38,495 bases of DNA from Pseudomonadota bacterium (GTDB taxonomy: Bacteria; Bdellovibrionota_B; Oligoflexia; Silvanigrellales; Silvanigrellaceae), in contig JBDLRP010000016.1 of the NCBI GenBank assembly GCA_039799905.1, forward strand, positions 1 to 38,495, written 5' to 3'. This document shows, one piece after another, positions 19,588 to 36,549 of the stretch. The notes below the pieces were generated by a model. The model had not been told where the DNA came from and ran no database searches. It saw only the letters and a program-made list of their open reading frames with translations. The position numbers and the translations under genes are program-made. Within the stretch, counting starts at the first letter, position 1; each line of letters begins with the position of its first letter.

Positions 19588-19649
19588 AACGAAGAAGCAG
19601 GTTAATCTCATCGCAATGGACTGTGCAACTCATCCAAGGAAGGATGAAC

Positions 19650-20981
19650 ATGCAACGTGGCAGCAATCGTCTCATATTCTCTTTGACTTGCCTGACACTT
19701 CTTGCGGGCTGCAAGAGCACGTCTGTGCAAGACAACCCAGCAACCAAAGATCGCCTTGCAACGAATCCTGTTCTTTTTATGGAGCAATATGAGAGCAACG
19801 AATTTTCTCGTTGTATCGATGAAGATGGCAAAACAACAGGTTCCCTAAACGCAATCTGGCGGGTGAAAAACTCTGCCGGACGCGAAATCAAACCTTACAT
19901 CGAAAGTTTTTCCGGCAAGGTACGCACACTGAAGGGTGAACTTCTCGAATTTCAAAGCTTCCTCGCAGTCTCAGAAAAAAATTTCGAAATCCCACAACAG
20001 GAACGTGTCGAGACTTTTCCACGCGGAAGCTATTCGGCCTTTAAAATCATCTTCACAGACGATGATGTTCGCAAAGGGCTTGCGGTCTTTAGACTGAACG
20101 GAATCACACCTCCAAACGCAGACTTTTCAACTGCAATTTTATACATTCCGCGTTTTGCGATTGGCGGTGAATATTCAACAAAATATTATCTTCAGAGACA
20201 CGACAAGCGTGTTCACGAATTGAGTTGCCAAGCAGTCAATGAAAGTACCCGCGAACAGCTCATCACATTTGCGGCAAAAGATGGTTTGCATGAATACAGT
20301 GGTCCGCGCGGTAAAAAAACCGCTTTTCTGACGACACCCATCAACCCTCAGGCAATTCAGGCGCGCGGTATTGCCTTAGACGCCGATGATCTGCAGGTGA
20401 CCAAAGAAACAAGTAAAGATCTGCGTCCTGCAAACCGTCCGGCGAATTACGACAAATTCTACAGGCACACGCGTCTCTTTGAGTGCGACACCGCCGGCAG
20501 CTTGGATGCGATTTGGAGGATTGCTGATGAAAAAGGGAAAAAGATTCCCGAATCAGAACAATTCATCACCGGCTTTGCGGGCGAACTGAAAGATAAAAAA
20601 TCCACACGCAATTTTTCCTTCAATGCAATCAGCATTGATCCGCAACCGGCATTTTATTCAGGTAAAATGCCCCCAAACGGTAAGTTCTTTTTTCCAGCAA
20701 TTGAATTCAAAGAAGACGACGTCAAGAACCAGGCCGCAGGGCACTCGCAACTCGGCAAGATCGATGCCGAGTTTGTCTCGGGAGGAGGCACAGTCTTTAT
20801 TCCTCGCAACGGTTCCGGAGAACCGATCTCTGTGTCGTTGTCTTTGGGCAAATCGTTGCGCGGCGAACCCTATCAAGTCACAATCCAATGCAAACCCGTC
20901 AGAAAAAACATCTCGGCATGGATGATCCATTGCCTTGGTCCCGACAACCGCAAGAGCGCAGGAAAGGCCTGCCAACCCTGA
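19650..20981 (+). CDS. Hypothetical lipoprotein made of two tandem homologous domains
   Basis: SD AAGGAAGG before ATG 19650; lipobox LAGC; internal duplication (GSLNAIWR / GSLDAIWR). Confidence 0.8.
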   Translation: MQRGSNRLIFSLTCLTLLAGCKSTSVQDNPATKDRLATNPVLFMEQYESNEFSRCIDEDGKTTGSLNAIWRVKNSAGREIKPYIESFSGKVRTLKGELLEFQSFLAVSEKNFEIPQQERVETFPRGSYSAFKIIFTDDDVRKGLAVFRLNGITPPNADFSTAILYIPRFAIGGEYSTKYYLQRHDKRVHELSCQAVNESTREQLITFAAKDGLHEYSGPRGKKTAFLTTPINPQAIQARGIALDADDLQVTKETSKDLRPANRPANYDKFYRHTRLFECDTAGSLDAIWRIADEKGKKIPESEQFITGFAGELKDKKSTRNFSFNAISIDPQPAFYSGKMPPNGKFFFPAIEFKEDDVKNQAAGHSQLGKIDAEFVSGGGTVFIPRNGSGEPISVSLSLGKSLRGEPYQVTIQCKPVRKNISAWMIHCLGPDNRKSAGKACQP

Positions 20982-20994
20982 GGAAAGGCTGTAA

Positions 20995-21921
20995 ATGAGA
21001 GATATATTGACCTCAGTGACGCAAGGAACTGCATTTTTAGTTCTCCTCCACTCAGCCCATGCTGCTGCATTTGTAAATCTGAGTGAGTGGAAAAAACCTA
21101 AGGTTTTTGGCCTTGCGCCATCCGCCGACACCGCGCAGGTTGGTACTATGATCCAATCCGGAAAGAACGCCTCCGCGGATCCACTGTTGAAAAAGACCAA
21201 TGCATCTTTGTTGGGACTTTATCCAATCATGCACGAGTTTGTCGGTGGTTTCACAGCCGGCGGAAACAGTGCCGAGATAAAAAATGTTACCACTCCACAG
21301 GGAAAGCAGACTCTAAAGACAAGCGCTTCATACGCAGAAATTGCAGGACTTTACGCATTCAGCGACAATCTCTCACTCTTTGTCGCACCGGGCTTCAGCA
21401 CAAAAACGGCAAAGACTGAAAAAGGTGAGACAAAGGAAAGCTTCATCACGCTGACCAGCTATAGCGTTTTGGCTGTGAGTGACACCTTGGGGCTGGGACT
21501 TGGTCTTTCCGGCAAAAGGAATGATCGCACACAGACGGTTATTCCATTGCTGGGTGGTGCGTGGCAACCCAACGCTGAATTCCGCTTGGACGGATGGCTG
21601 CCTGCGAACGTTCATGCGCGCTGGAAGTACAGCGCGAGCCAAGCACTCTTCGCAAGACTCGAACTCAATGGCGACACAGCGCTCTCAGAGCACCTCACCA
21701 CCTCCGAGAAAACGGATCTGCAGATGCTGGGCGCGCAATTCCTGATGGGTTGGTCGATAGGAATGCCGATTGGATTTGGAACAGGCTCTGTGCGCGTCGA
21801 TCCTTCACTGGGCGTCTTTAAGGGTCAATTGACTCAAACGAATACACAGACTGAGAAGCAAACCAAAACCAGCACAGAAATCAATCCAGTCGTCGACCTC
21901 AGAGTCGCCGTTGCTTTCTGA
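20995..21921 (+). CDS. Putative outer-membrane beta-barrel protein
   Basis: Signal peptide ending AHA, alternating amphipathic strands (LGLGLGLSG, IPLLGGAWQP), and a C-terminal beta-signal DLRVAVAF ending in Phe. Confidence 0.75.
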   Translation: MRDILTSVTQGTAFLVLLHSAHAAAFVNLSEWKKPKVFGLAPSADTAQVGTMIQSGKNASADPLLKKTNASLLGLYPIMHEFVGGFTAGGNSAEIKNVTTPQGKQTLKTSASYAEIAGLYAFSDNLSLFVAPGFSTKTAKTEKGETKESFITLTSYSVLAVSDTLGLGLGLSGKRNDRTQTVIPLLGGAWQPNAEFRLDGWLPANVHARWKYSASQALFARLELNGDTALSEHLTTSEKTDLQMLGAQFLMGWSIGMPIGFGTGSVRVDPSLGVFKGQLTQTNTQTEKQTKTSTEINPVVDLRVAVAF

Positions 21922-22062
21922 AGCAGGCAATCGTTTGGTCTGAAGGATTTCTGTGAGTCAGGACTTCTCCCAATACATGCATTATTGTCATTATTTTCGG
22001 AATGTTAAATTTCCACCGTAGTTTTGATCATGAAATATTTTTGTTGTGCCGATACACACCCT

Positions 22063-23607
22063 ATGAAGTGCGTGATGTATTTATGGACGGTGTGTATCGG
22101 TCTGGGCGGCTGTGCCGCTCAGAAGCCGGTCTGTTCGACGGCGAAATCCATCCCCGTGCTGAATGGATCAATTTACAACGAACTCAACGCACGAACTCTT
22201 CCTCCAGCATGGGGCGGAGTGATTGATCTTATCGAGGATCCGGACTCACCAGAAACATCAAAACGATCACGCTGCACGGTCAAGATGGATTACGTGCCGC
22301 TCGCCTCTGGACAATCTACGAACATCGCCAACCTTGCTTTTTGGACAGCGGACCACTGTTTGAATTTCAGCACAGCGCAAAGCGCGGAATTGAATTTGTT
22401 TGACCCAGATTTGAAAATTTTCCACCGCTTTGCGATTCGCCTGCCAGCGATGGAAGAATTCAAAGCAGGACTGAAGCTTTTTCAAGAGCGTTCAAAAACC
22501 ACCCCAGGCGGAGATGCTGCCTCCGACCTTGCGGCTTTTCAGGAAGCCGGAAAACGCAATCCTGTGTCTTTGGACAATAGCGGCACTCAAATCATTGAGC
22601 GTGGTTCTGCTGCCTGTCAGACTGATACGGCTTCATTCAAATCGTCTTCGCCCGGATTGACCGCCATCTGCAGCACTGTGCTTGATCTTGCGCGACTTGA
22701 GGCCACTGCGGATTCCGCCGCGCTCAATCGAACGGATGTGAAGGGAGCTTTAGAACGATTGAGCGCTTACCTGCAGAGCGCCGAGAAGAAACGCTTTGAC
22801 GATGCCGTCATTCTTGTCCCACCCATCCCGATTCCAGGTACAACAAGAACTCTCCAATCCGACTTCCTGTTTTTTCTCAACAATTGGCGTCTCAAAATCA
22901 TGCAAATGACTCGTTGGCGCGGGCTGGAGTCACAATCTTCACTCATCGAAAAAGTGCGCAACTGCGCTGCTGATGAGACGGAAGGAATTTGCGCTGCGCC
23001 TTTTAGAACTTTTTTCAATGATGCACTGAGCGAGTATGCGGGCTGGAACGTCAGCTCTAAAACTTATCCGGTTGCACTTCATGATGAAGTCAATGCTCCG
23101 GAAACACCCACCAAACACAACCTTCCATGGATTATCAAAGGACAGAATGATATCAAAAACTTTGCTTTTTTGAGCGCAGAAAGCAGCTTTGCCAGCAATT
23201 TTCTCCGCAAGGGAGTGACAGCCACCGTCTCCTCAACTTTACCGGTACTCGGAGAATCGGGAGCATTGTTCTTTGGCCTCGCAACACCGTTTCAGATGAT
23301 CGGTGCAGATTCTAATACCGACCCAACATCAATTATAAAGTTTTACGCAAAAACCGTCTTGATTCCCTATGCGACCACCTCCAATGCAGGGCTGTCGTTT
23401 TTACTGCAACCGGGAGACTCGGGCTCGGTTTGGATCGTGAACAACACACCTATCGGAGTGGTTGCAACTGTCGACGGAGTCGAGACCTCCGGTGGGGCTT
23501 CGGTCCGCCCGCTTCCAGAAATTCCCGAAGATGATGCCGCCTCACCAGAGACCCAAACCACCACGACCGCCCGGAAAAAAACTGGAAATCAACCGTTGTG
23601 CCTTTGA
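22063..23607 (+). CDS. Putative lipoprotein with divergent trypsin-like (S1) serine protease motifs
   Basis: Lipobox-like LGGC; WTADHCL (His), VLDLARL (candidate Asp), QPGDSGS (Ser). Start is uncertain (22030, 22063 or 22075). Confidence 0.7.
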   Translation: MKCVMYLWTVCIGLGGCAAQKPVCSTAKSIPVLNGSIYNELNARTLPPAWGGVIDLIEDPDSPETSKRSRCTVKMDYVPLASGQSTNIANLAFWTADHCLNFSTAQSAELNLFDPDLKIFHRFAIRLPAMEEFKAGLKLFQERSKTTPGGDAASDLAAFQEAGKRNPVSLDNSGTQIIERGSAACQTDTASFKSSSPGLTAICSTVLDLARLEATADSAALNRTDVKGALERLSAYLQSAEKKRFDDAVILVPPIPIPGTTRTLQSDFLFFLNNWRLKIMQMTRWRGLESQSSLIEKVRNCAADETEGICAAPFRTFFNDALSEYAGWNVSSKTYPVALHDEVNAPETPTKHNLPWIIKGQNDIKNFAFLSAESSFASNFLRKGVTATVSSTLPVLGESGALFFGLATPFQMIGADSNTDPTSIIKFYAKTVLIPYATTSNAGLSFLLQPGDSGSVWIVNNTPIGVVATVDGVETSGGASVRPLPEIPEDDAASPETQTTTTARKKTGNQPLCL

Positions 23608-23634: not shown

Positions 23635-24219
23635 TCAACGAAACAACAAAACACCAGCAGTGCAGTAAATCTTAGTCTTAATACCGCTAGGCAGGCGATT
23701 TTCCTTATCAACCCAAAAATCACCACTTTTGTCATTTATGCTGCGCTCATTTAATTTCCAGACAAAGAATTCCCTTTCCACGCCGAGATCAACAAAAAAA
23801 CCAGCCGACGTAGAGCCAATTAATTCTGAGCGATTGGGATTACTTTCCCAACGGACTCCTAGGTGAGCGTTGTAACCTGTGGCCCACGAGGCAGTTGTGG
23901 GGTTGCTCAGTAAACCGTCTGTTGAAAATAATTTTTGTTTAAAATAATTTTGATAGTCTTTCACAACATGAGCCGAAATACCGCCCGAAAAGCTAATACC
24001 AGGAGTGAGAGATGTGTGGCCCTCTGCGGCGAAATTAAGTGCATCATTCAATGCATCACCTGCGCCTAGTCCGAATCGCCATTTTGTATTCGATGTCGCA
24101 GTTTCCTCAAAAAGAACTGACAAACCAAATCCACCAAATGGCCCCGAGGGAAACACAGGAAAAACGAAAAAAGGTGTTGCATGCAACGAAAATGCAAATG
24201 CTGCTCCTACAAGACTCAT
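23635..24219 (-). CDS. Hypothetical exported protein, possibly a small beta-barrel
   Basis: 194-aa ORF with SD GGAGG, a short hydrophobic N-terminus ending LHA, and Gly/aromatic alternating strands. Confidence 0.65.
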   Translation of the reverse strand: MSLVGAAFAFSLHATPFFVFPVFPSGPFGGFGLSVLFEETATSNTKWRFGLGAGDALNDALNFAAEGHTSLTPGISFSGGISAHVVKDYQNYFKQKLFSTDGLLSNPTTASWATGYNAHLGVRWESNPNRSELIGSTSAGFFVDLGVEREFFVWKLNERSINDKSGDFWVDKENRLPSGIKTKIYCTAGVLLFR

Positions 24220-24263: not shown

Positions 24264-25397
24264 TCAGGACATTTCCAACAGCCCCTGGGCCGTCAGTGAC
24301 TGCTGCTGGTCTGTCAAATCAAAAAAAGTTTTCTCCCAGTATTCGTTCTCTTCAAAAAAGGAGAATGTTCTGCGGAAAAAGGGATCGTTCCAGCGGCCCG
24401 CAATCCACCCAAGATAATGAATCATCTTGAGCGTCCGCAGCGGTTCAACAAAAATCTCCCAGTCATTCGGCAGTGCACGAAAATCACGATAGCCCTCGGT
24501 GAGCAGACCAAGCGCGTAATCTGATGACGCAACATTCTCGAGATGATCGGGGACGATGATTCCGCACGTGGAGGCAAGCGGCCAGACGTCCTGCATTGCG
24601 AGCCCCATCTGACAATCATCAAAGTCGACAAACCAAAATTGCCCGCCCTCGGTCATCTGCACCAAGTTGAGACGGTGAAGATCTCCATGCACGGGAGTAA
24701 AAACATCCGCATGGGAAAGCCACTCCAACCCGCGTCCCACTTGTTCAATCAATTGAAACAGACCACCGCTGAACTGGCGCGGCACTCGGTTCCATTCTGT
24801 GAGGTTCTTTAATGGAGTGTGAACATACATGTCCAAGCTGAACTTAGGACGCACAAATTGAGCGGAGTCAATGTGACTCTCAAAAAGATTGTGCATGCGC
24901 GCGACTGTTCTGCCGATTCCAAGCAGATCTTTTTCCTCAAGCTCGAGGGGAACGCGGCCGTAGATTTTTTCCCAGACGGCAAAAGAAAAGATTCCTGCCT
25001 TGCCGAGAGTCGCAGACGTCGGGAAGGAGTGCGGCAGATCGCCGCGCAATTTGCTGCGCAGTGTTGACGCCTCAGGATGAATATAATCAGGCCTGATAAT
25101 CGGAATAAGTTTTGGAGTCTCGATGTTTTCTTCGGCAAGCAATCGCAGCAATGCATGCTCGCTCACCAGCATGGCCGGCGTCCAGCGCTGCGGACGATAA
25201 AACTTGATGATGATTTGCCCGACGCCGCGCGGCTGCTTTGGGTCCTCTATTTCAACCGCATAAACGCGATTTTCCATGCTGTTGAGCTGCTGAAAACGCC
25301 CTGTCGACCGCAATCCGGTGGATTCGGCGGCCGACAGGATGAGTTCGGCATCGAGTTGTGCGAAGTGGTCGGCAGATGCGCTGCTGATTTGATTCAC
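24264..25397 (-). CDS. srkA: Stress response Ser/Thr kinase SrkA (YihE/RdoA family)
   Basis: LNSMENRVY, KFYRPQRW, HGDLH, FVDFDD, EPLRTLKMIHYLGWIAGRWNDP. GTG 25397 forms a GTGA overlap with the upstream stop; alternative start 25430. Confidence 0.88.
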   Translation of the reverse strand: MNQISSASADHFAQLDAELILSAAESTGLRSTGRFQQLNSMENRVYAVEIEDPKQPRGVGQIIIKFYRPQRWTPAMLVSEHALLRLLAEENIETPKLIPIIRPDYIHPEASTLRSKLRGDLPHSFPTSATLGKAGIFSFAVWEKIYGRVPLELEEKDLLGIGRTVARMHNLFESHIDSAQFVRPKFSLDMYVHTPLKNLTEWNRVPRQFSGGLFQLIEQVGRGLEWLSHADVFTPVHGDLHRLNLVQMTEGGQFWFVDFDDCQMGLAMQDVWPLASTCGIIVPDHLENVASSDYALGLLTEGYRDFRALPNDWEIFVEPLRTLKMIHYLGWIAGRWNDPFFRRTFSFFEENEYWEKTFFDLTDQQQSLTAQGLLEMS

Positions 25398-26629
25398 TGT
25401 TGTGGCGGAATTGTCGGAGTTGAGGTGCACACGTAAGGCTTATTAGCATCACAACTGGTTGGCAAGCCGACTCCAGCAGTTTTGTTGAGGCAGAATGCAC
25501 TCGTACACAAGTCATCGATCTTTTTCTGGTCGTCTGGATTATTAATTGGATCTAGCTTTCCAATAATCTCATTGGCCTTTGCTTTTGCCTTATCCGCGGC
25601 TTCTGCCGTCGCAGTTCCCGTCTTGGCTGTTCCACCCTCCGATTTGCCCGCATCAAGATAGCTGTTGATGTTGTTCAATGCTGAATTCAAACCGTCGATA
25701 CCCTTGGAAATGCCAGACTTGATGCTTGCAGGAAGGTTTGTAGCACCAATCACGGCATCAATGATGCTGAATTGCGAAATCGCCAGCTTGAAGACTTCGC
25801 CCTGCAGTTGACTCAAAACATAGTTCAAGTCGTCGGTGGCTCTGGTGAGCGTCGCCACGTTTGCCGCAATGTCGCCGCCCGCGGTATTGAGACCGTCGAT
25901 TGAGGTCTTGGCAGCATTGGCCCGAACCTCAAGGTCAAATTTGCCGTCGCCATTTGCGTCCAAAATTGCTTTGTAGAGACTGGAGAATTGGCCGAGTGCC
26001 ATAGAGAGGGCCGCAATGCTGACGTTGGCATCGGTGCGGTCGCGTCCGTCGCCACATTTGCTGACTTCGAGCAGATCCAACGCACTGGCCGCTTTGGTTT
26101 TCAGAGCCGACATCGTTTCTTTCGAGAACAAGGGGCAAATTGCGAGAAATGCCTTTTGAAACGTGGCAAACTCTTCAATTTTCGCCCTGAGCTCGCTGAC
26201 GCTTGTCGTTGCTGACGCGTTTTCTTTCAACTCTTCAATAGTTTTGTCTGGCAAGCTTGATTTGCTCGTCAGGCTGGTAATATCGGATGAAGATGATCCA
26301 CCCGTGCTGCCGCCGGCAAACGACTTAATAAGTTCAATCGGTGTGATGCCCAGCGTTCCGTTATAGGCAAAAGCAAGACGGATGCGAGCTTCATCGTTGC
26401 TCGGGTCAACCACAATGACCTTTTCAAGCAGGCTTTGAGCCTTGGCATAGTCACCTGTGTCATAAGCGGCCTGGGCTTCCAACAAGAGACGGGAGGGAGT
26501 CTCGGCGCGGTCAGGATTTGCCAAAAAGCCACACGCCGAAACCACCGCGAAGGTCATGCTCAGCGAAACGAGCTTCAGTTTGCGCTGCACGTTTGTCTGT
26601 TTCATTGATTTGTCGGAATTGAGAATCAT
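25394..26629 (-). CDS. TPR-containing lipoprotein
   Basis: Lipobox VSAC; TPR LEAQAAYDTGDYAKAQSLLEKVIVVDPSNDEARIRLAFAY. Start set at ATG 26629 (alternative 26605); the longer ORF overlaps fusA. Confidence 0.78.
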   Translation of the reverse strand: MILNSDKSMKQTNVQRKLKLVSLSMTFAVVSACGFLANPDRAETPSRLLLEAQAAYDTGDYAKAQSLLEKVIVVDPSNDEARIRLAFAYNGTLGITPIELIKSFAGGSTGGSSSSDITSLTSKSSLPDKTIEELKENASATTSVSELRAKIEEFATFQKAFLAICPLFSKETMSALKTKAASALDLLEVSKCGDGRDRTDANVSIAALSMALGQFSSLYKAILDANGDGKFDLEVRANAAKTSIDGLNTAGGDIAANVATLTRATDDLNYVLSQLQGEVFKLAISQFSIIDAVIGATNLPASIKSGISKGIDGLNSALNNINSYLDAGKSEGGTAKTGTATAEAADKAKAKANEIIGKLDPINNPDDQKKIDDLCTSAFCLNKTAGVGLPTSCDANKPYVCTSTPTIPPQQ

Positions 26630-26778
26630 GGCGTGCCCCCCGCTGCCGAGACTTTCTGCGAATAGATGCTCTTTGATGTTAGCCAAGCGCAGAATAACCT
26701 CAATGTGAACTTTTTGCCGGTCGGGAGGCAGGCGGACAGACCGACGGTTTTGAATCGGCAAACCGACGGTCAAAAGAC

Positions 26779-28845
26779 TCAGACGAGTCCCATAATTTTG
26801 TCCTGCAGATTTTTTGGCACTGGCTCGTAGTGCGAGAACTGCATCGTGCTGCTGGCACGGCCCTGCGACAAGCTGCGGATGTCTGTTTCGTAACCAAAAA
26901 GCTCTGCGAGCGGGATTTCCGCCTGAACAACCTGCAAATGGCCGCGGGCATCGAGACCCAGCACCCGTCCGCGCCGGCCGTTCACGTCTGAAACGATTGT
27001 CCCGCTTGATTCGGGCGGCACAACAATTTCGACCTTCATAAATGGTTCCATCATGACTGGCGACGCTTTTTCCAAAGCTGCACGGGCTGCATTGGCCACT
27101 GCCACTTTGTAGCAAACTTCATCGACGAGCTGAGGGTCAAATGAAAAATCGGTGACCTCGACCTTGAGATTCACGAGAGGATAACCGCACAACGGCCCAC
27201 TGCTGACGGCGCCTTCAAGGCTTTCTCTGAGAGCAGCATAAATATTATTGGGAATGTTGGCTTTCTTGACAACATCCACTGCAGGAGCTCCGCGTTCGTC
27301 TGAGGCGACAACCTTGAGAGCAACCCATGCGGAGAAGTTTTTATTATTCACACTGCGCGAGAATTCTTCACGTGCAGCCGCAGATTTCGTGACCGATTCA
27401 CGGTAGCTCACCTGAGGCTTGCCGATATTGGCCTGCACCTTAAACTCTCGCAGCAGGCGATCGGCGATGATCTGCAAATGCAATTCGCCCATGCCCGAGA
27501 TCAGCACCTGACCCGTTTCTTCGGACGTACTCACACGCAATGAAGGGTCTTCCGTCGCCAGACGATTGAGGCTCTGCAGCAGTTTGTCGAGGTCAGCTGT
27601 CGACTTTGGCTCGACAGCAAGCGAAATGACCGGCTCGGGAAATTTCATAGCTTCATATGCGATAGGTGCATCAATCGCAGCCAGCGTGTCGCCGGTCACG
27701 GCAAATTTGAGTCCCACCAGTGCAACAATCTCGCCTGCCGAAACTTCCTCGACTTCGGCGCGATCGTTGGCATGCATCATGAGAATTTTTGTGACGCGTT
27801 CCTTCTTTTGCTTCAGCACATTCTGAACAGCATCGCCCACCTTCAGCTTTCCGCTGTAAATGCGCGCGAACGAAAGTGAACCCACGAACGGGTCGCTCAT
27901 AATTTTGAAGACAATCGCTGAGAACGGCGCATCCGCGGTGTGAGCGCGTTTTCCGGCGCCGACAATTCCCTCAACCTCTACTCCCTCAACTTGAGGAACA
28001 TCCAAAGGCGAGGGCAGGTAATCAACGATTGCGTTGAGCAAGGGCTGAATGCCTTTGTTCTTAAATGCAGTACCCATAAATACGGGCACGAGCTTCAGGC
28101 CGATGACCGCCTTGCGGAGTGCCGACTTGATCATCGCCGGAGAAACTTCGGCATCTGAGAGCACAGCTTCTGCGAGGGCATCGTCGAAGTCTGCGAGATT
28201 TTCGACCAGCTCCTGACGGTAAAGCTGGGCATCATCCATTAAACTTGCAGGTATAGATCCTTCTGTGAACGGCGAATCTTTGTCGTCGCCCTTCCACGTC
28301 CAAGCCTTCATTTCGACAAGATCAACCACGCCGGAGAAGGCGCTTTCAGAGCCAATAGGCAACTGTGCGAGTGCCACGCGAGCATTCAGTTTTGAACGCA
28401 TCGATTCGATACACATCTCGACATCGGCGCCCACCTTGTCCATCTTATTGAGGAACGCGATGCGCGGAACTTGGTAGCGTTCCGCCTGACGCCAAACCGT
28501 TTCGGACTGTGGCTCAACACCATTGGCTGCATCAAAAACAGCGACCGCACCGTCCAACACACGCAACGAGCGCTCAACCTCAATCGTAAAGTCTACGTGT
28601 CCGGGAGTGTCTATCAGGTTGATGCGCGTGTCTTTCCAGAAGACGGTCGTCGCAGCGGACGTGATCGTGATGCCACGCTCCTGCTCCTGCACCATCCAGT
28701 CCATCGTGGCAGTGCCCTCGTGAACTTCACCCAGCTTATGACTTTTTCCCGTGTAGTAGAGCAAACGTTCGGAGGTTGTTGTTTTGCCGGCGTCGATGTG
28801 CGCCATGATACCGATGTTGCGAAACAGACTGAGGTCGTGACTCAT
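26779..28845 (-). CDS. fusA: Elongation factor G, divergent in domain IV (EF-G2/recycling-type candidate)
   Basis: [51 protein letters not shown]; lies downstream of rpsL-rpsG. Confidence 0.95.
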
Positions 28846-28873
28846 GTGCTGACTCTTTCAGGTGCTAGTGACC

Positions 28874-28905
28874 AAAAAAAACAGCGCCGGTACAGGGCGC
28901 TGTTT
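28874..28905 (-). terminator. Intrinsic terminator between rpsG and fusA
   Basis: The minus strand reads AAACAGCGCC-CTGTACC-GGCGCTG followed by T8. Confidence 0.82.
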
Positions 28906-28928
28906 CTGCTTGAATGCGATGGCCGAAA

Positions 28929-29423
<495 letters not shown>

Positions 29424-29577
29424 TCAGTTCACCGACCTCAGCAACAACTGAAGTGCGGGTTCCTTACATCAGCTCGCGGACTGAAACTGAAAACGTTCCG
29501 CAAGCTGCCTCTTGCTGCAGACTTCAATCCGCACAACGGACTGACTCTGCGCGAAGCAACAAATCCAACCGGACTTG

Positions 29578-29991
29578 TTACTTCTTGCCTTTCTTTGCCG
29601 GTTCGGCGACAGCTGCGCCTCCCTTCGGCCTCTTGGCTCCGTATTTGGAGCGCGACTGGCGGCGCTTTGCAACACCGGCGGTGTCCAATGAACCGCGGAC
29701 GATGTGGTAACGCACACCGGGAAGGTCCTTTACACGACCACCGCGTACGAGAACGACGCTGTGCTCCTGAAGGTTGTGTCCTTCGCCTGGGATATAGGAA
29801 ATGACTTCAAAACCTGAAGTCAAACGAACTTTGGCAACCTTACGGATAGCTGAGTTCGGCTTCTTTGGCGTGGTTGTGTACACGCGAGTGCACACGCCAC
29901 GGCGTTGCGGGCAGTTCGCCATTGCCGGCGACTTACTGCGGTAGACTTTGGGGTGGCGCCCCTTTTCTACGAGCTGGTTAATGGTTGGCAT
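29578..29991 (-). CDS. rpsL: 30S ribosomal protein S12
   Basis: [41 protein letters not shown]. Confidence 0.99.
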
Positions 29992-30053: not shown

Positions 30054-30082
30054 ACCGTAGCGGCAAAGACCCCGATGGTCAA
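30054..30082 (-). promoter_or_regulatory. Putative sigma70 promoter of rpsL-rpsG
   Basis: Minus strand TTGACC-N17-TACGGT; the -35 element overlaps the ABC gene stop codon. Confidence 0.45.
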
Positions 30083-31848
30083 GCCTTGAAATCGGGTTTG
30101 TACCCTCGCTCAGAGGTCAGTATTTCCTGCGGCCGCCCCTGCCTGACAATGCGCCCGTCCTCCATGAGGACGACCCAGTCGGCCCGACTGGCCAAATCAA
30201 TTGAGTGCGTCGTCACGATACGAGTCTTTTCGACCCACAACCCACAAATAAGGTTGGCGATAATTTGATGGGCAGTGGCGCTGTCCAGTGCCGCCAAGGG
30301 GTCATCCAGTAACAATACGTCTGCCTCGTCAAAATAGGACAGCTGAGCCAGCCCCACCCGTTGCCGCTGTCCGCCCGAGAGGGTCACCCCCCGCTCTCCG
30401 ATGGCAGTGTCCAGGCCGGAGGGCATCACCCTGAGGTCCTCGGCGAACTCGCTCTGTTCCAAGAGGCCACGCAGCGCTCCATCACTTTCGCGATCGTTTT
30501 CAAACTCGAACCTGAGAACATCACGCAGAGAGGCTGAGGGAAGCACAACATCCTGAGAGAGAAATCCAACCTTGAGTCCGCTGCGCCGAACTATGTGACC
30601 CATCGCAGGCGCAAGTTCCCCGAGCAGTGCGCGCAGAAGTGTAGATTTACCCGAGCCGACAGGGCCGAGCACCACAACCAATTGTCCACGACGAACGTCA
30701 AGGGTGACGTCCTTCAAGGCGTGCTGTCCTTGACGCGTGGGGTATCCCAAGGAAACACCCTGCAGGCCAACCTCTGCCTCGGGCATCAGGCTTTTGTCGG
30801 GAGACACAAAAACCGGAGGCTGTTCGGGTGATTGTAAAAATGCATCGAGTCGCTGCGCCGATACGGCACCCACCTGAATAAAGCTCAGATAGGTCCCGAC
30901 AAATAAAAAAGAGTCCTGCAGCAGTCCCGAATACCAATTAACTGCGAAGAGCAGGGCAACCAATTCATGGGAATCAAATGAGACACCAAACAATGCCGGC
31001 GAATAGACCACCCACAGCAAAACCGCGGCCCAGGCAAACCAACGCAGTGAGGCAAAGACAGGCACGTACCGGCAGCTGATTTGATTTGAGGTCAGCTTCA
31101 TGTCCTGTTCAAGGTGAGCGAACGTGCGGATGCGCCGCTCAAATTCTTTTTCGGCGGTCAGCGACTTGACCAACAGCACCGAGCGGACTGACTCCTGCAG
31201 AACTGACAGGCGCTGCGATGAATAAATAGCTCTCTTTTGCAGCGCCGGTGCCATCTGCTTTGCGAATTTTCGTGCAAGAAAAACAAGCATCAACAAAACA
31301 AAGAAAAAAATACTTCCCGAAATCCCAATCTTGACTGTCAGGAAAATCGAGACACCGACAGTCAGAATCAGTGTCGTCAAAAACGACAGAATCCCCTCAG
31401 CCCAGACTCCCGCCAATTGGGCGGCGTCTGAAGAATGCAACTGAGCCACTTCACCCGCCGAGACGAGCTGCAGCTCGGAATAAGTCAACTGGCTGTATTT
31501 CTGAAAAATCCGTCGTCGCACAGCATTGGACAATGTGACCGAAACTCTATTTTGCAGATATCTCTTGAACCACTGCAGGACTTCAAAAAAGAATTGCAAT
31601 GAAAAAAAGACAATAAAAATCTGCAGCAGCTGTTTCCAGCCCTGCCCCGCGTCGCGGCCCAAAAACGAAAGCATGCGCGCCTGCGCGTCGATGGCGAATA
31701 AACCGCAGACCGTGACGGCAAACAAAAGCACAGCCATGAAATAAATTTGAACGCGGACAAGACGGGTACCATAGCGAAATGTTGGCGACGCGCGCAGGAC
31801 TTTTAAAGCACCGGAAAAGTCGGGGGCCTGCTGAGCATTGGTTTTCAT
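30079..31848 (-). CDS. ABC half-transporter (TMD+NBD), resembling the ABCC/MRP first half (NBD1-type)
   Basis: Walker A GPVGSGKS, IGERGVTLSGGQRQRV, Walker B LLLDDPLAALD (Asp in place of the catalytic Glu), TRIVTTH. ATG 31848 with SD GGAGGAG and an ATGA overlap. Confidence 0.9.
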   Translation of the reverse strand: MKTNAQQAPDFSGALKVLRASPTFRYGTRLVRVQIYFMAVLLFAVTVCGLFAIDAQARMLSFLGRDAGQGWKQLLQIFIVFFSLQFFFEVLQWFKRYLQNRVSVTLSNAVRRRIFQKYSQLTYSELQLVSAGEVAQLHSSDAAQLAGVWAEGILSFLTTLILTVGVSIFLTVKIGISGSIFFFVLLMLVFLARKFAKQMAPALQKRAIYSSQRLSVLQESVRSVLLVKSLTAEKEFERRIRTFAHLEQDMKLTSNQISCRYVPVFASLRWFAWAAVLLWVVYSPALFGVSFDSHELVALLFAVNWYSGLLQDSFLFVGTYLSFIQVGAVSAQRLDAFLQSPEQPPVFVSPDKSLMPEAEVGLQGVSLGYPTRQGQHALKDVTLDVRRGQLVVVLGPVGSGKSTLLRALLGELAPAMGHIVRRSGLKVGFLSQDVVLPSASLRDVLRFEFENDRESDGALRGLLEQSEFAEDLRVMPSGLDTAIGERGVTLSGGQRQRVGLAQLSYFDEADVLLLDDPLAALDSATAHQIIANLICGLWVEKTRIVTTHSIDLASRADWVVLMEDGRIVRQGRPQEILTSERGYKPDFKA

Positions 31849-33611
31849 TCTGGCTCCTCCGATTTTGGCAGGTCGGCGGGAAGGCCGCGCCAAGCAAGCT
31901 TTCCGTCTTTCAGGAGCCACACTTCATCGCACGACTGAAGAGTCAAAGCCCGATGAGCAATCAGTAGTATGGGCAATTGCAGGCGGATTTTTTGCAATGC
32001 AGAACTGACAAGGCGTTCGGTCTCGGCATCGACGGCGCTGGTGGCTTCGTCCAAAACCAGCAACTCGGGTGATTGAGCGAGTGCCCGCGCCAGACAAACA
32101 AGTTGACGTTGCCCCTGACTGAGATTCATACCGCGCTCGAGTATCTCGGTGGCGAGACCCTGAGGAAGCCGAGCTAACCAATCGCTTAATCCGACCGTGT
32201 TCAAAACAGCGACAGCACGCGACTGATCTGAACTATTTTCAAAACTGCCATGTGGGAGAATATTGTTAAACAGCGTACCTGAGAACAAAACAGGATCCTG
32301 CGGCACAAAAGCGATCCGCGATCGGGCATAGCCGGCAGGCCTTTCGGTGAGTGTCTGCCCATTTAGCAGAATGCGACCTTCGCGAAGGGGAACAAATCGC
32401 AGCAGCGCTGAAACCAACGTACTTTTTCCGGCACCGGTGCGTCCGGCTATGCCAACCATCTGCCGCGACCTAAGTGTCGCACTGAAGCCGTCCAGCACGG
32501 GTGGCTCAGATGTCGAATACCCCACGCAAACATTTTCAAAGCACACAATTGCTTCAACCTCCGGCTGAGCCTGAGCGCTGACAGCACTTTTTTCGAGTGT
32601 GTCCTCAGCGGGCAGCTGCGCAAATTCGTTGAGCCTCTCGATGCTGACAAAGCCCAACTCAACCGTATTGATGAGCTCAATGACCAGAACGAAGTTTCGC
32701 AAAATCACCATCAAGAGCGAGATGACCGCTCCGGCCTGCCCGACGCTCAATTGTCCGCGGCTGTGCGCCCATGCCGAAGCCAGGAGCGCGAGAGCAATCA
32801 CGATGAGTGCCAAAAAAGACTGAACGAAAGTTCTGTGACTGCTCAACTGCGCCGTTGCAAGCGTCAGCGATGCAGAGTCGCCAAGAAGTTTATCCATCCG
32901 GCGCGTCATCCTGTCTTGAAGCGACAAAGCTCTTACGGCGACTCCCAGCGAACCGATCTCGTTGAGATGAGCAAGTACGGCAGCATTGGCGCGACTGGCC
33001 GCGCGCTGACGCTCGCGCGCACGCTGACCAAAAACTCGACTCGCGAAATAAATTCCGGCGACAAACGGCATCGAGATGAAAAACACGAGCGGGTGTGAAT
33101 AAAGGATCGATATGGAACTGAAGAAGATCGCGAGAACTGCGTAGATGAACGTTGCCATCGTACGGTCCAGCGACTGCGAGGCATTTTGAAAATCATTTGA
33201 AAAGCGTGATATGACACGTCCGCTCGGGGTTTGATTGAAAAATGTCAACGGCGAGGAAAGAACCGCTGCCACGGCCCGCTCGTGAAGATCGGTGAGCGCC
33301 CTGATGAGTGTTTCATTGATGTACATGCGGCCAAAACGGTTGCCGAGGTACATTATATAAAGACAGGCGATCAGAGCCGCAAAGAAAATCGCAATTCTTG
33401 TATCTGCATGTATGAGCTGCTGAGCTGCGTCAACTTCAAGTATGCGATCGGCAAGGCGGCCGCCAAGAAGAGTGACTATCGACCAACACAACGACGCAAT
33501 CGACAGAGCAAAGAGCCCCGCAACAAGCGGGGCTCTTTGGCTGAGTGCCGAATTGAAAAAAGTTCGCAGGCTGCTCCAACGGATGCGGCCGTGAACCTCT
33601 GTTTCCTGCAT
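31845..33611 (-). CDS. ABC half-transporter (TMD+NBD), resembling the ABCC/MRP second half (NBD2-type)
   Basis: FFNQTPSGRVISRFSND, GRTGAGKS, PQDPVLFSGT, NLSQGQRQLVCLARAL, VLDEATSAVD, IAHR. Confidence 0.92.
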   Translation of the reverse strand: MQETEVHGRIRWSSLRTFFNSALSQRAPLVAGLFALSIASLCWSIVTLLGGRLADRILEVDAAQQLIHADTRIAIFFAALIACLYIMYLGNRFGRMYINETLIRALTDLHERAVAAVLSSPLTFFNQTPSGRVISRFSNDFQNASQSLDRTMATFIYAVLAIFFSSISILYSHPLVFFISMPFVAGIYFASRVFGQRARERQRAASRANAAVLAHLNEIGSLGVAVRALSLQDRMTRRMDKLLGDSASLTLATAQLSSHRTFVQSFLALIVIALALLASAWAHSRGQLSVGQAGAVISLLMVILRNFVLVIELINTVELGFVSIERLNEFAQLPAEDTLEKSAVSAQAQPEVEAIVCFENVCVGYSTSEPPVLDGFSATLRSRQMVGIAGRTGAGKSTLVSALLRFVPLREGRILLNGQTLTERPAGYARSRIAFVPQDPVLFSGTLFNNILPHGSFENSSDQSRAVAVLNTVGLSDWLARLPQGLATEILERGMNLSQGQRQLVCLARALAQSPELLVLDEATSAVDAETERLVSSALQKIRLQLPILLIAHRALTLQSCDEVWLLKDGKLAWRGLPADLPKSEEPE

Positions 33612-33615
33612 AAAA

Positions 33616-35001
33616 TCAGCGAGCCTCTGGTGTCGTCTCCGCTATGACGATTGACAATGCGCGGTCGACATTCAGCCGTCCGCCGCTGGCAATCTTATCT
33701 TCGTAATCAGCCACCTTGTCCACCGACTGCAACAATATTCTTTTAATTTCGATCGGAGAAAGGTTCGGCTTGTAGGCTTTCAGAAGTGCTGCAGCACCCG
33801 CGACGTGCGGACAAGCCATCGAAGTGCCGCTGTTGACACCATATTTGCCTTCAGGAAGTGTGCTGTAAATGTAATCGCCCGGTGCGGCCAAATGAACCGA
33901 ATTGACTCCATAGTTACTGAAGTCAGCCAGCCTGTCCTCTGAGTCGGACGCGGCAACCGCAATCACGTTGGGAAGATTGTATGCCGCCGGATACATCGGA
34001 AGGGTATCGTTGTTGGTGCCATCGTTTCCAGCTGCCGCCACGAACAAAACATTGCGCGCGGCGGCCTCTGCAATGGCATCCTCAAGTGCTTTGGAATATT
34101 CGTCACCGCCCCAGCTGTTGGAGAGAATTGATGCGCCGTTGTTGACCGCATAGCGGATGGCGAGAATTGCATCTTCGGTTGTTCCGGAGCCGTCGCCGTC
34201 AAGAAATTTCAGCGCCATCAATGAAGCCCGCTTTGCAACCCCCGAAATTCCGATTCCGTTTCCACCAGTCGCCGCAATGCTTCCGGACGTGTGAGTGCCG
34301 TGTCCGTTGTCATCCCAAGGCAGGGCATCCTTGTTCGTAAAGTCCCAGCCGAAAACATCGTCGGTGTATCCGTTGCCGTCATTGTCGCGACCGTCGTCGG
34401 CAATCTCTCTGCCGTTGCGCCACATGTTGTTGATCAAATCGGGATGGTTGTAATCGATGCCGGTATCGATGTCAGCGACGATGACGTTTTCACTTCCTAC
34501 TGTCTTGGCCCATGCGGCGGGGGCCTGAACCTTCTGCACACCATAGACTTTGTTCATCAGCGGATCCGCACGATTTCTGCGTGGCAGACGCGGAGGGACG
34601 TCCGGTTTGGGATCTGCGACGGAGTTCAATGAATGCCAAAGAAGGTGACGCTCAACGTGCAGAACATTCTCACTGAGAAAGCTGCTTGAATATATGTAAG
34701 CGCGTAGCTCGTCGAAAGATGCTGACCCGCTGGTGTCGGTGACCTTATACCACTGTCCGTCGGACGTTTGTAAAATCGGCTGTGCATTGAAGCTAAGAGA
34801 GAACTCCTGACTCAGTGCGCGTATCGCCTCGGCGGAGCGGGCCTTGATCAAGAATTCATCGACAACGAATTGGCCCCGAAATTTGTGTGTACGGACTCCG
34901 GTATCGGCCGCAGCGGAGAACACACACAGAGAAACCAGCAGATGAGCTGCAATCGCAGCTCGAAGCTTTTGCCGGAGTTTGCAAAGGTGCAAAAAAAACA
35001 T
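33616..35001 (-). CDS. Secreted S8 subtilisin-like serine protease
   Basis: Signal peptide and prodomain; triad IDTG / HGTH / GTSMA; oxyanion AAGN; DNDGNGYTDD insert. Confidence 0.93.
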   Translation of the reverse strand: MFFLHLCKLRQKLRAAIAAHLLVSLCVFSAAADTGVRTHKFRGQFVVDEFLIKARSAEAIRALSQEFSLSFNAQPILQTSDGQWYKVTDTSGSASFDELRAYIYSSSFLSENVLHVERHLLWHSLNSVADPKPDVPPRLPRRNRADPLMNKVYGVQKVQAPAAWAKTVGSENVIVADIDTGIDYNHPDLINNMWRNGREIADDGRDNDGNGYTDDVFGWDFTNKDALPWDDNGHGTHTSGSIAATGGNGIGISGVAKRASLMALKFLDGDGSGTTEDAILAIRYAVNNGASILSNSWGGDEYSKALEDAIAEAAARNVLFVAAAGNDGTNNDTLPMYPAAYNLPNVIAVAASDSEDRLADFSNYGVNSVHLAAPGDYIYSTLPEGKYGVNSGTSMACPHVAGAAALLKAYKPNLSPIEIKRILLQSVDKVADYEDKIASGGRLNVDRALSIVIAETTPEAR

Positions 35002-35030
35002 CGGAGCCTCCTTTTGGGATTGCTCCGATG
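34991..35030 (-). terminator. Terminator-like hairpin overlapping the RBS and start codon of the downstream subtilase
   Basis: Minus strand CATCGGAGC-AATCCCAAAAGGAG-GCTCCGATG-TTTTTTTT: a perfect 9-bp stem followed by T8. Confidence 0.65.
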
Positions 35031-35121
35031 ATTGTATTTCGCATTACAAGCAGGCAGCGGTAAAACGCTTGCCCACAACTGTCAGCGGGCTCGATGGGAA
35101 ATGGATTCCCAAACTGGGAAA

Positions 35122-36549
35122 TCAGTTCCCAGCAACAGGCTCGCCAAATTGCGATTTAGCCACCGCAAAGGCCTTGGAAATATTCAAACGACCACCTGTC
35201 TGAACTTTGCCTTCGAGATTTGGAAGCTTCTCAACAGCCTCCATAAGAACAGCCTTCAGCTCTTTTGCCTTCATGTTCGGATAGGCAGCCTTCAGAAGGA
35301 CAGCCGCACCTGAAACGTGTGGAGTCGCCATCGATGTACCGCTCAGGCTGTTGTATTTATTGCCCGGAACCGTGCTGAGAATTTTCACACCAGGTGCAGC
35401 AATGTGAACAGTCGTCGCACCATAGCAGCTGAACGATGCAAGTTTGTCCGCGGAATCAGTTGCTGCAATCGTCAGAACGTTCGGCAATTTGTAATTCGCA
35501 GGATACTGAGCCTTCTTATCGTTGTCGCTGCCGGAGTTTCCAGCTGCAGCCACAAACAAGATGCCTTTGTCGTTGGCGCGCGAGATTGCATCAAACATCG
35601 CCTGTGAGTAGCCTCCGCCACCCCAGCTATTGGACATGATCGATGCGCCGTTGTTGGTAGCGTATTCTATCGCCTTGATTGCATCTTCAAGCGAGCCTGA
35701 TCCTTCTGAACCGCCGAGGAAACGAAGCCCCATGATGCTGGCTTGCTGTGCGACGCCAGAGATTCCAACTCCGTTTCCACCTGTCGCTGCGATGGTGCCC
35801 GCGGTATGGCTGCCGTGCGAGTTGTCATCGAAAGGACGTGCGTCTTTGTCACGGAAGTCCCAACCAACGATGTCATCGATATAGCCGTTGCCGTCATTAT
35901 CCACGCCATCTGCGGGAATTTCAGCAGGGTTGCGCCAGAGGTTATTGATTAAGTCTTCGTGGTTGTAATCGATACCTGTGTCGATGTTGGCGAGAAGGAC
36001 TTTCGTGCTTCCGCTCGTGACCTGCCAAGCCTGCTGTGCGCCGATTTTACTCAGTCCGTACATGCGCGACAGATCTGGGTCCGCAACGGGAGGATTCGGA
36101 AGCGAAGGTACTGGGCTGTAGTCGGGACCAGCTTTGCCGCGTGACGGAGGGGAAGGCATGTTCTTTTCGTTGGCGGACAGCGTGTAGTAAAGATAATTCG
36201 GTTCCGCATAGACGACGTCGGCACTTTCGCGGGCCGAGAGAATTGCCTCGCGAAGCTTGTAGTCGTCGGCAACACGGACTTTGTACCAAAGGCCAGAATC
36301 GCGTGCTTCCATCACAGGAACTTTGCGCGCAACAGCGCCAACGCTTTCATATTGTTCTTCAAGGAGGCGCTCGAGTGCTGCACCTGAGCGGACTTTAACG
36401 AGATATTCACCGCGGATGTAGGGATAGCCGTCTTCTGTGAAAGCGATTTGTTTTGATGCGCGGCTTCCCTCGGCCTGACCCAAAAGTCCAAGCGAGGAGA
36501 CTGCGATAACGCCAAGAACAGACGCTAGTGAACGTGCAGACATTCTCAT
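35122..36549 (-). CDS. Secreted S8 subtilisin-like serine protease
   Basis: Signal peptide; prodomain ending YAEPNY; triad IDTG / HGSH / GTSMA; DNDGNGYIDD insert; SD AGGGAG. Confidence 0.94.
   Translation of the reverse strand: MRMSARSLASVLGVIAVSSLGLLGQAEGSRASKQIAFTEDGYPYIRGEYLVKVRSGAALERLLEEQYESVGAVARKVPVMEARDSGLWYKVRVADDYKLREAILSARESADVVYAEPNYLYYTLSANEKNMPSPPSRGKAGPDYSPVPSLPNPPVADPDLSRMYGLSKIGAQQAWQVTSGSTKVLLANIDTGIDYNHEDLINNLWRNPAEIPADGVDNDGNGYIDDIVGWDFRDKDARPFDDNSHGSHTAGTIAATGGNGVGISGVAQQASIMGLRFLGGSEGSGSLEDAIKAIEYATNNGASIMSNSWGGGGYSQAMFDAISRANDKGILFVAAAGNSGSDNDKKAQYPANYKLPNVLTIAATDSADKLASFSCYGATTVHIAAPGVKILSTVPGNKYNSLSGTSMATPHVSGAAVLLKAAYPNMKAKELKAVLMEAVEKLPNLEGKVQTGGRLNISKAFAVAKSQFGEPVAGN

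Follow-up and report, generated by a model that had tools for sequence, protein, structure and literature searches.

Two overlapping genes of a freshwater bacterium raise the question of whether the halves of an ABCC-type pump can persist as separate subunits and, if so, whether they were ever joined. The genes, P0001 and P0002, lie on the minus strand of a 38,495-nucleotide stretch (the window), which is one whole contig (JBDLRP010000016.1, assembly GCA_039799905.1) of a member of the family Silvanigrellaceae, class Oligoflexia. An earlier interpretation made from the letters alone (the sequence-only reading) had described them as a eukaryote-like ABCC/MRP transporter encoded by two genes in reversed order, and had offered two histories: a state preceding fusion, or fission and rearrangement. 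We consider it probable that the genes encode the separate halves of an ABCC-lineage pump, likely a two-subunit exporter with one dead ATP site, and that this lineage was likely never fused.

Layout and motifs of the gene pair

On the minus strand, half 2 comes first. P0001 (588 amino acids, 31845..33611) was assigned as an ABCC-type second transmembrane domain with its nucleotide-binding domain (TMD2-NBD2) from motifs, Pfam, TIGR00957 and Protein Data Bank (PDB) matches. P0002 (589 amino acids, 30079..31848) was assigned as half 1, an ABCC-type TMD1-NBD1 without the lasso motif described below, from motifs, profiles and a structural model. Pfam detected one ABC_membrane and one ABC_tran domain in each protein. 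The start codon of P0002 (ATG, 31848-31846) overlaps the stop codon of P0001 (TGA, 31847-31845), and the resulting ATGA (31845..31848), seen directly in the sequence, likely reflects translational coupling. P0002 was taken from this ATG; the listed open reading frame (ORF) of 613 amino acids uses an upstream GTG start inside P0001. A frameshift or assembly artefact was ruled out, because an independent lagoon metagenome contig spans the junction (30694-31895) with no indel listed there and because the layout recurs in relatives.

All of the motifs named in the sequence-only reading were found, together with the ATGA coupling. In P0001, we observed FFNQTP (residues 124-129), GRTGAGKS (390-397), PQD (437-439), LSQGQ (497-501), LDEATS (520-525, including the catalytic E522) and H553. 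P0002 carries GPVGSGKS (395-402), Q432, LSGGQ (490-494), LDDP (514-517) and H548. The NBD1 segment from Walker A to the Q-loop (30550..30666, minus strand) contains LLGEL. In the NBD1 Walker B motif LDDP (30298..30309, minus strand), Asp replaces the catalytic Glu and the Pro is common to ABCC proteins; the degenerate NBD2 signature LSQGQ (32109..32123, minus strand) would complete the dead site.

Each gene thus encodes one membrane and one ATPase domain with complementary motifs, and two adjacent TMD-NBD genes with complementary degenerate motifs are the arrangement of heterodimeric exporters of the BmrCD, TM287/288 and TmrAB kind. MdlAB/SmdAB, BmrCD (YheI/YheH), TM287/288 and TmrAB likewise consist of two half-size subunits of the same fold, and passages of PMC7756269 and PMC4046567 describe one degenerate and one consensus site in bacterial heterodimeric type IV exporters. 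The two halves likely assemble into a 12-helix heterodimeric exporter of the type IV fold, in which one ATP site works and the other is dead. If TM287/288, BmrCD and MRP1, as treated in passages of PMC7756269, PMC4046567 and PMC10305233, are a guide, ATP would be held and rarely split at site 1, which combines Walker A and Asp515 from half 1 with the LSQGQ signature from half 2. At site 2, where Walker A, Glu522 and His553 from half 2 face the LSGGQ signature from half 1, ATP would be split, driving alternating access across the inner membrane. The overlap may couple translation and so supply the subunits 1:1, and the swapped gene order would block a simple read-through fusion in the ABCC order. 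As a machine, the pair would be ordinary, working like BmrCD or TM287/288, and its substrate, judged by analogy, would most likely be a small amphipathic compound or a peptide.

The AlphaFold model of half 1 (predicted local distance difference test, pLDDT, 81.6) begins at the elbow helix and has the type IV fold. Foldseek ranked MsbA and TmrAB at the top for half 1, and the highest template modelling (TM) scores among the matches listed were those of ABCC chains (0.79-0.80 versus 0.66-0.77). The heterodimer model that the sequence-only reading had proposed was also run. The complex scored 0.75, whereas the best of three controls scored 0.00; this indicates likeness only, because like complexes have already been solved. 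The runs agreed in at least 92% of contacts and the partner pLDDT was at least 77. The mark applied to such models was reached by 51 of 78 solved pairs and by 2 of 108 mismatched pairs.

These results bear on the alternative that the halves are not a joint exporter but pair with paralogous halves, form homodimers, or import. Two further split pairs in the genome could supply partners, and some type IV folds do import: IrtAB and YbtPQ, which are importers, were among the Foldseek matches. However, the halves co-occurred wherever both could be seen, as the sequence-only reading required, and did so with a conserved overlap; a homodimer of half 1 would lack the catalytic Glu, and the complex model passes the mark. 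We regard this alternative as very improbable.

Membership in the ABCC lineage

The best PDB sequence matches were the second halves of ABCC5 and ABCC4 for P0001 and the first halves of MRP1 and ABCC4 for P0002. In the alignment to TIGR00957, a full-length model, P0001 occupied positions 1026-1506 and P0002 positions 343-852; the scores (224 and 152 bits) missed the cut-off of 1470, each gene covering only half of this model. Passages of PMC10305233 describe a 13-residue deletion in the NBD1 of ABCC proteins and a lasso (L0) motif preceding TMD1, and passages of PMC8640958 describe the lasso as found in CFTR and other ABCC proteins. The deletion was recognized in half 1: the Walker A to Q-loop segment is 38 residues long, compared with 36 residues in 15 of 16 eukaryotic ABCC proteins and 49 in the MdlA type, and is thus 11 residues shorter than the latter at the same place. 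The lasso was not detected, since profiles from eukaryotic and bacterial fused lassos gave at most 0.4 bits in all six half 1 orthologues, although these profiles also miss some true fused members.

Residue counts pointed in the same direction as the deletion. DDP in half 1 was observed in 6/6 orthologues, 29/34 fused proteins, 16/16 eukaryotic proteins and 0/23 outgroups; the corresponding counts in half 2 were 6/6, 33/34, 15/16 and 0/23 for the Phe of RF, and 6/6, 34/34, 16/16 and 0/23 for the Cys of LCLARAL. The pair also has the combination of NBD1 Walker B DDP, NBD2 DEAT and a degenerate signature that passages of PMC4649718 and PMC7756269 give as ABCC marks. Two stretches found in the cavities of fused and eukaryotic ABCC proteins, NRW and LRFP, are not conserved in the pair. 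W273 was considered as the equivalent of W553 of MRP1 and was rejected, as the pairwise match failed in the multiple alignment; no substrate was inferred from it.

The start of half 2 coincides with an acidic E..E..G motif (33588..33605, minus strand), which is homologous to the end of the linker in fused ABCC proteins. A similar motif starts the second halves of another split lineage (the C19 type, see below) and, on visual inspection, the free MdlB-type subunits from two other phyla (Acetoanaerobium and Rhizobium); the motif therefore likely predates fusion. Strictly, an ABCC protein is a single TMD1-NBD1-TMD2-NBD2 polypeptide, and at 11 of 11 distinct loci the pair consists of two swapped ORFs. 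Being split and without a lasso, the pair is not a strict ABCC member, but it belongs to the ABCC lineage. Compared with the short eukaryotic ABCC proteins (ABCC4/MRP4, ABCC5/MRP5, and the cores of MRP1, Ycf1, SUR and CFTR), it has the same dead-site pattern, short NBD1 segment, DDP and lineage; it differs in having two polypeptides, a swapped gene order, and no lasso, linker or TMD0.

Another alternative is an ordinary divergent heterodimer of the MdlAB/BmrCD type, in which the ABCC look would be due to convergence and long-branch attraction. An Asp Walker B in one subunit with an altered signature in the other was also found in Escherichia coli MdlAB and in all 12 named ordinary pairs, the first halves of which had been assigned by the Walker B Asp itself. 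The dead-site motifs mark an asymmetric heterodimer, not an ABCC protein, and the Asp Walker B was rejected as an ABCC marker since it is common to MdlAB-type pairs. The asymmetric-site signatures of the sequence-only reading are thus present, but these two are not ABCC-specific. The reversed order, which it had pointed out, was likewise rejected as a rarity in itself, because half 2 also precedes half 1 in 1 of the 12 named ordinary pairs. Among NCBIfam profiles, MsbA-type or LssB-type ones ranked first for the pair, all under their cut-offs, which together with the Foldseek ranking favours an ordinary exporter, as does the position of the long-branched CydC and CydD near the ABCC halves in a mixed tree of 244 halves. 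The cut-offs for MdlAB/SmdAB (NF008055/NF008056) were missed (P0002, 119 versus 845 bits; P0001, 180 versus 746), as were those for CydC and CydD (at most 175 bits versus 329 and 435).

On the other hand, the branch leading to the ABCC lineage is long (0.55-0.73) and fully supported against 23 outgroup pairs, and placements of the pair among the outgroups lose at least 127 log-likelihood units (lnL). Several diagnostic residues occur in none of the 23 outgroups, and ABCC chains gave the highest TM-scores among the matches listed. MdlAB-type pairs fall outside the ABCC-lineage clade, and MdlA has the 49-residue segment without DDP. The NBD phylogeny suggested by the sequence-only reading was run, and a grouping with ordinary ABCB/MsbA-like exporters, which it had named as a refutation, was not seen in the trees. 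An ordinary heterodimer is therefore improbable in our judgement.

Origin of the split arrangement

Two further split ABCC-type pairs, both in forward order, and two fused ABCC proteins are encoded in the same genome as the pair. The C19-type pair (G000:C19:46478-52181) has an opposite-strand gene between its halves; the C42-type pair lies at G000:C42:13348-17252. One fused protein has 1215 amino acids (G000:C39:82259-85903), and the second is apparently broken across contigs (G000:C43:2-3157 with C4:1-756). Relatives of this genome hold the same types of paralogues, and fused ABCC proteins are common in the same class, which the description as eukaryote-like obscures. In the C19 type (8 pairs used), the Walker A to Q-loop segment retains 49 residues, as in MdlA, and the motif reads DDC, DDA or DDT. 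DDP is present in the C42 type (3 pairs), whose segment contains an insertion and whose N-terminus resembles a lasso with weak scores (2.9-13.2 bits). The insertion in C42-type first halves (L092:3684-5834, L093:3824-5908, G000:C42:15189-17252) comprises 10-14 residues and stands at the place of the ABCC NBD1 deletion. All C19 (8/8) and C42 (3/3) pairs are in forward order.

The placement of the pair was examined in trees, in which the supports given are bipartition values. The eukaryotic sample comprised mostly animal sequences with a few fungal, plant-like and other proteins, and BmrCD, TM287/288 and TmrAB themselves were outside the set. The G013 pair described below was omitted from the 44-system set and its subsets, and 11 of 143 new library matches without two clean halves were dropped. 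Half 1, half 2 and joined trees gave the same order: outgroups, (pair, (C19 type, (C42 type, (fused bacterial and eukaryotic proteins)))), with the split pairs as a grade leading up to the fused clade. The whole ABCC lineage, comprising the pair, the two other split lineages and the fused bacterial and eukaryotic proteins, received an ultrafast bootstrap (UFBoot) value of 100 (44 systems, 1038 columns), in agreement with the sequence-only reading on both halves, and FastTree supports of 0.999-1.0 in each of the seven trees (half, joined and enlarged). The clade of fused and eukaryotic proteins excluding the pair had a UFBoot of 100 (44 systems); the value was again 100 on inclusion of the C42 type and 99 when the C19 type was included. 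FastTree supports for this clade were 0.89-0.997 in NBD-only, TMD-only, slow-site and no-outgroup trees. The best tree of an unfinished IQ-TREE run with 79 systems had the same backbone.

When the pair was regrafted on 45 branches under LG+F+G4, only the basal placement passed the approximately unbiased (AU) test (2000 replicates), and placements inside the fused clade lost at least 124 lnL. Under LG+C20 with posterior mean site frequencies (PMSF; 11 placements), inside-fused placements lost at least 98 lnL and a sister position to the fused clade lost 51, while two neighbouring basal placements cost 12 lnL (p about 0.03). Single-fission trees for all three split lineages lost 48-72 lnL. Furthermore, among 132 two-domain library matches, 116 fell in the clade of fused and eukaryotic proteins and 16 among the outgroups, with none beside any split lineage. 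From the placements and these matches, one fusion is simpler than three or more fissions. Some fused full-length exporters of Actinomycetota and other bacteria (P0137, P0252, P0342, P0356, P0271, P0283, P0316) do not belong to the ABCC lineage and have retained the long NBD1 segment; such halves have thus likely fused more than once.

An old fission is the principal competing history: a fused bacterial ABCC protein would have split, lost its lasso and linker and swapped its halves, and fast evolution would have pulled the pair to the base. The short NBD1 segment (38 versus 36 residues), DDP and LLGEL are common to the pair and the fused proteins and not to the C19 type, the start of half 2 coincides precisely with the motif closing the linker of fused proteins, fused paralogues occur in the same genomes, and the pair is confined to one family. 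Nevertheless, all inside-fused placements were rejected under the two models, the basal position was stable in slow-site and no-outgroup trees, a similar acidic motif stands (by eye) on free MdlB-type subunits, and there is no relic of a lasso. We consider an old fission unlikely, and of the two histories offered by the sequence-only reading we favour the pre-fusion one; fission from a sampled fused lineage is rejected in the trees. The trees suggest that the pair is likely a surviving never-fused form and not a broken gene.

Several points weigh against this reading. Mean identities are low (half 1, 24% to fused proteins and 21% to outgroups; half 2, 27% and 23%), and since identity to all groups is low (21-30% across groups), deep branching can be distorted. 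The rank among the split lineages is soft: the node placing the pair below the C19 type drops to 0.58-0.59 in two subset trees, and two adjacent placements are excluded with p no lower than about 0.01-0.03. The AU tests used a fixed backbone, and the search for split ABCC-type pairs was confined almost entirely to one class. Folding of the complex used no alignments and a half 2 truncated at residue 420, so that most of NBD2 was absent. Finally, the short segment, DDP and LLGEL tie the pair to the fused proteins more closely than the tree does; these common NBD1 features suggest that the true order may be the C19 type first and then the pair.

Eukaryotic ABCC proteins nest inside the bacterial fused ones (UFBoot 100), adjoining a subclade of Oligoflexia proteins with a Nostoc/Roholtiella protein (P0381); making them sister to all fused bacterial forms cost 41 lnL. 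The fused bacterial proteins (Oligoflexia and some cyanobacteria, about 1200-1350 amino acids) have the lineage, genomes and NBD pattern of the pair, but they are single chains in half 1-half 2 order, mostly with a lasso, and group with eukaryotes to the exclusion of the pair; one is labelled by its source as 'subfamily C (CFTR/MRP) member 1'. A wider reading, which we hold tentatively and at somewhat less than even confidence, is that the ABCC family was assembled inside Oligoflexia/Bdellovibrionota, that single Silvanigrellaceae genomes keep the split stage without a lasso, the split lasso-like stage and the fused stage, and that all eukaryotic MRP, Ycf1, SUR and CFTR proteins descend from one fused branch. 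As part of it, and with the same reserve, the C19 type (long NBD1 segment) and the pair would represent the no-lasso split stage and the C42 type the lasso-like one.

Occurrence, surroundings and meaning

In the survey of relatives suggested by the sequence-only reading, the order half 2-half 1 was kept at all 11 distinct loci (the window, L021-L028, L040 and L135), in four genera of one Oligoflexia family, Silvanigrellaceae; the overlap is ATGA at 9 and GTGA at 2. Not counted were L134 and L136 (junctions near-identical to L024 and L022), L137 (an unrelated ATPase) and L029 (only part of half 1). The relatives sharing this layout are 24-62% identical. The half 1 profile was run on 104 genomes from the phylum with a completeness of at least 85%; it detected true orthologues in the source genome and in 7 of 26 other family genomes, a very divergent one in genome G013, and none in 77 genomes of other families. 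The G013 pair (L040:4077-7621), with 24-28% identity, is also reversed and has decayed motifs (GPTASGKT, LSAGQWQ, DEFT and an H-loop Ser). Four genomes from the same genus (86-94% complete) yielded no half 1 orthologue, and the pair is therefore probably dispensable.

When 1.84 billion representatives were searched with a profile, no more than six close single-half relatives appeared before scores fell to full-length ABC proteins, and no longer protein exceeded 39% identity among the matches listed. A plasmid search with P0001 gave nothing close (25 matches listed, about 30% identical), and the ESM Atlas returned generic ABC exporters only. A promoter and terminator scan was at chance level (6 versus 3.8 and 7 versus 10.5). 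In two RNA runs, contigs covered the upstream subtilase and rpsL/rpsG and none covered the pair; such contigs indicate presence only and are silent on expression.

Directly upstream of the pair are two tandem subtilases (33616..36549, minus strand), present at 7 of 11 loci, and directly downstream are genes that we take from their sequences to be rpsL-rpsG-fusA (26779..29991, minus strand); rpsL follows at 6 of 11 loci, and two contigs end at that point. On these counts the pair moves as a unit, and the neighbours, which are context only, yield no substrate. The subtilases have hydrophobic N-termini, and the upstream one is 78-86% identical across the genus, with RNA contigs in two metatranscriptomes; as partners of the pump they are weak candidates, being absent at 4 of 11 loci. 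After rpsL-rpsG-fusA, a TPR protein and an NF008738-family kinase stand in place of tuf (24264-29991, minus strand), an order kept in several relatives. A long Gln/Asn-rich ORF cut by the contig end (36844-38495, plus strand) is 33-47% conserved at the same place in relatives and had no Pfam match over the cut-off. Five ORFs of 194-670 amino acids (3078-5090, 19476-23607 and 23635-24219) had no Pfam family at an E value of 0.001.

ABCC pumps, a medically important family, include MRP1, CFTR and SUR. An origin of ABCC by fusion of two unlike halves was already proposed: passages of PMC4649718 report small clades of prokaryotic half transporters that branch basally to both the N- and the C-terminal NBD clusters of ABCC, propose heterofusion, and refer to Igarashi et al. 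2004 for ABCC-related bacterial clusters. These passages name no living unfused form, and either work may already place the present lineages. In our literature search, outside which most subscription papers fell, no paper on split or fused bacterial ABCC proteins of this lineage turned up.

The interest of the pair is evolutionary, not mechanistic, and depends on deep trees, which can mislead. The trees point to a bacterial donor for the eukaryotic ABCC family. A two-subunit relative with a remodelled NBD1 and no lasso would allow the contributions of the NBD1 deletion, the lasso and the fusion to be tested in a bacterial host. If the lineage was indeed never fused, the pair would reveal how the MRP/CFTR pump family was put together.

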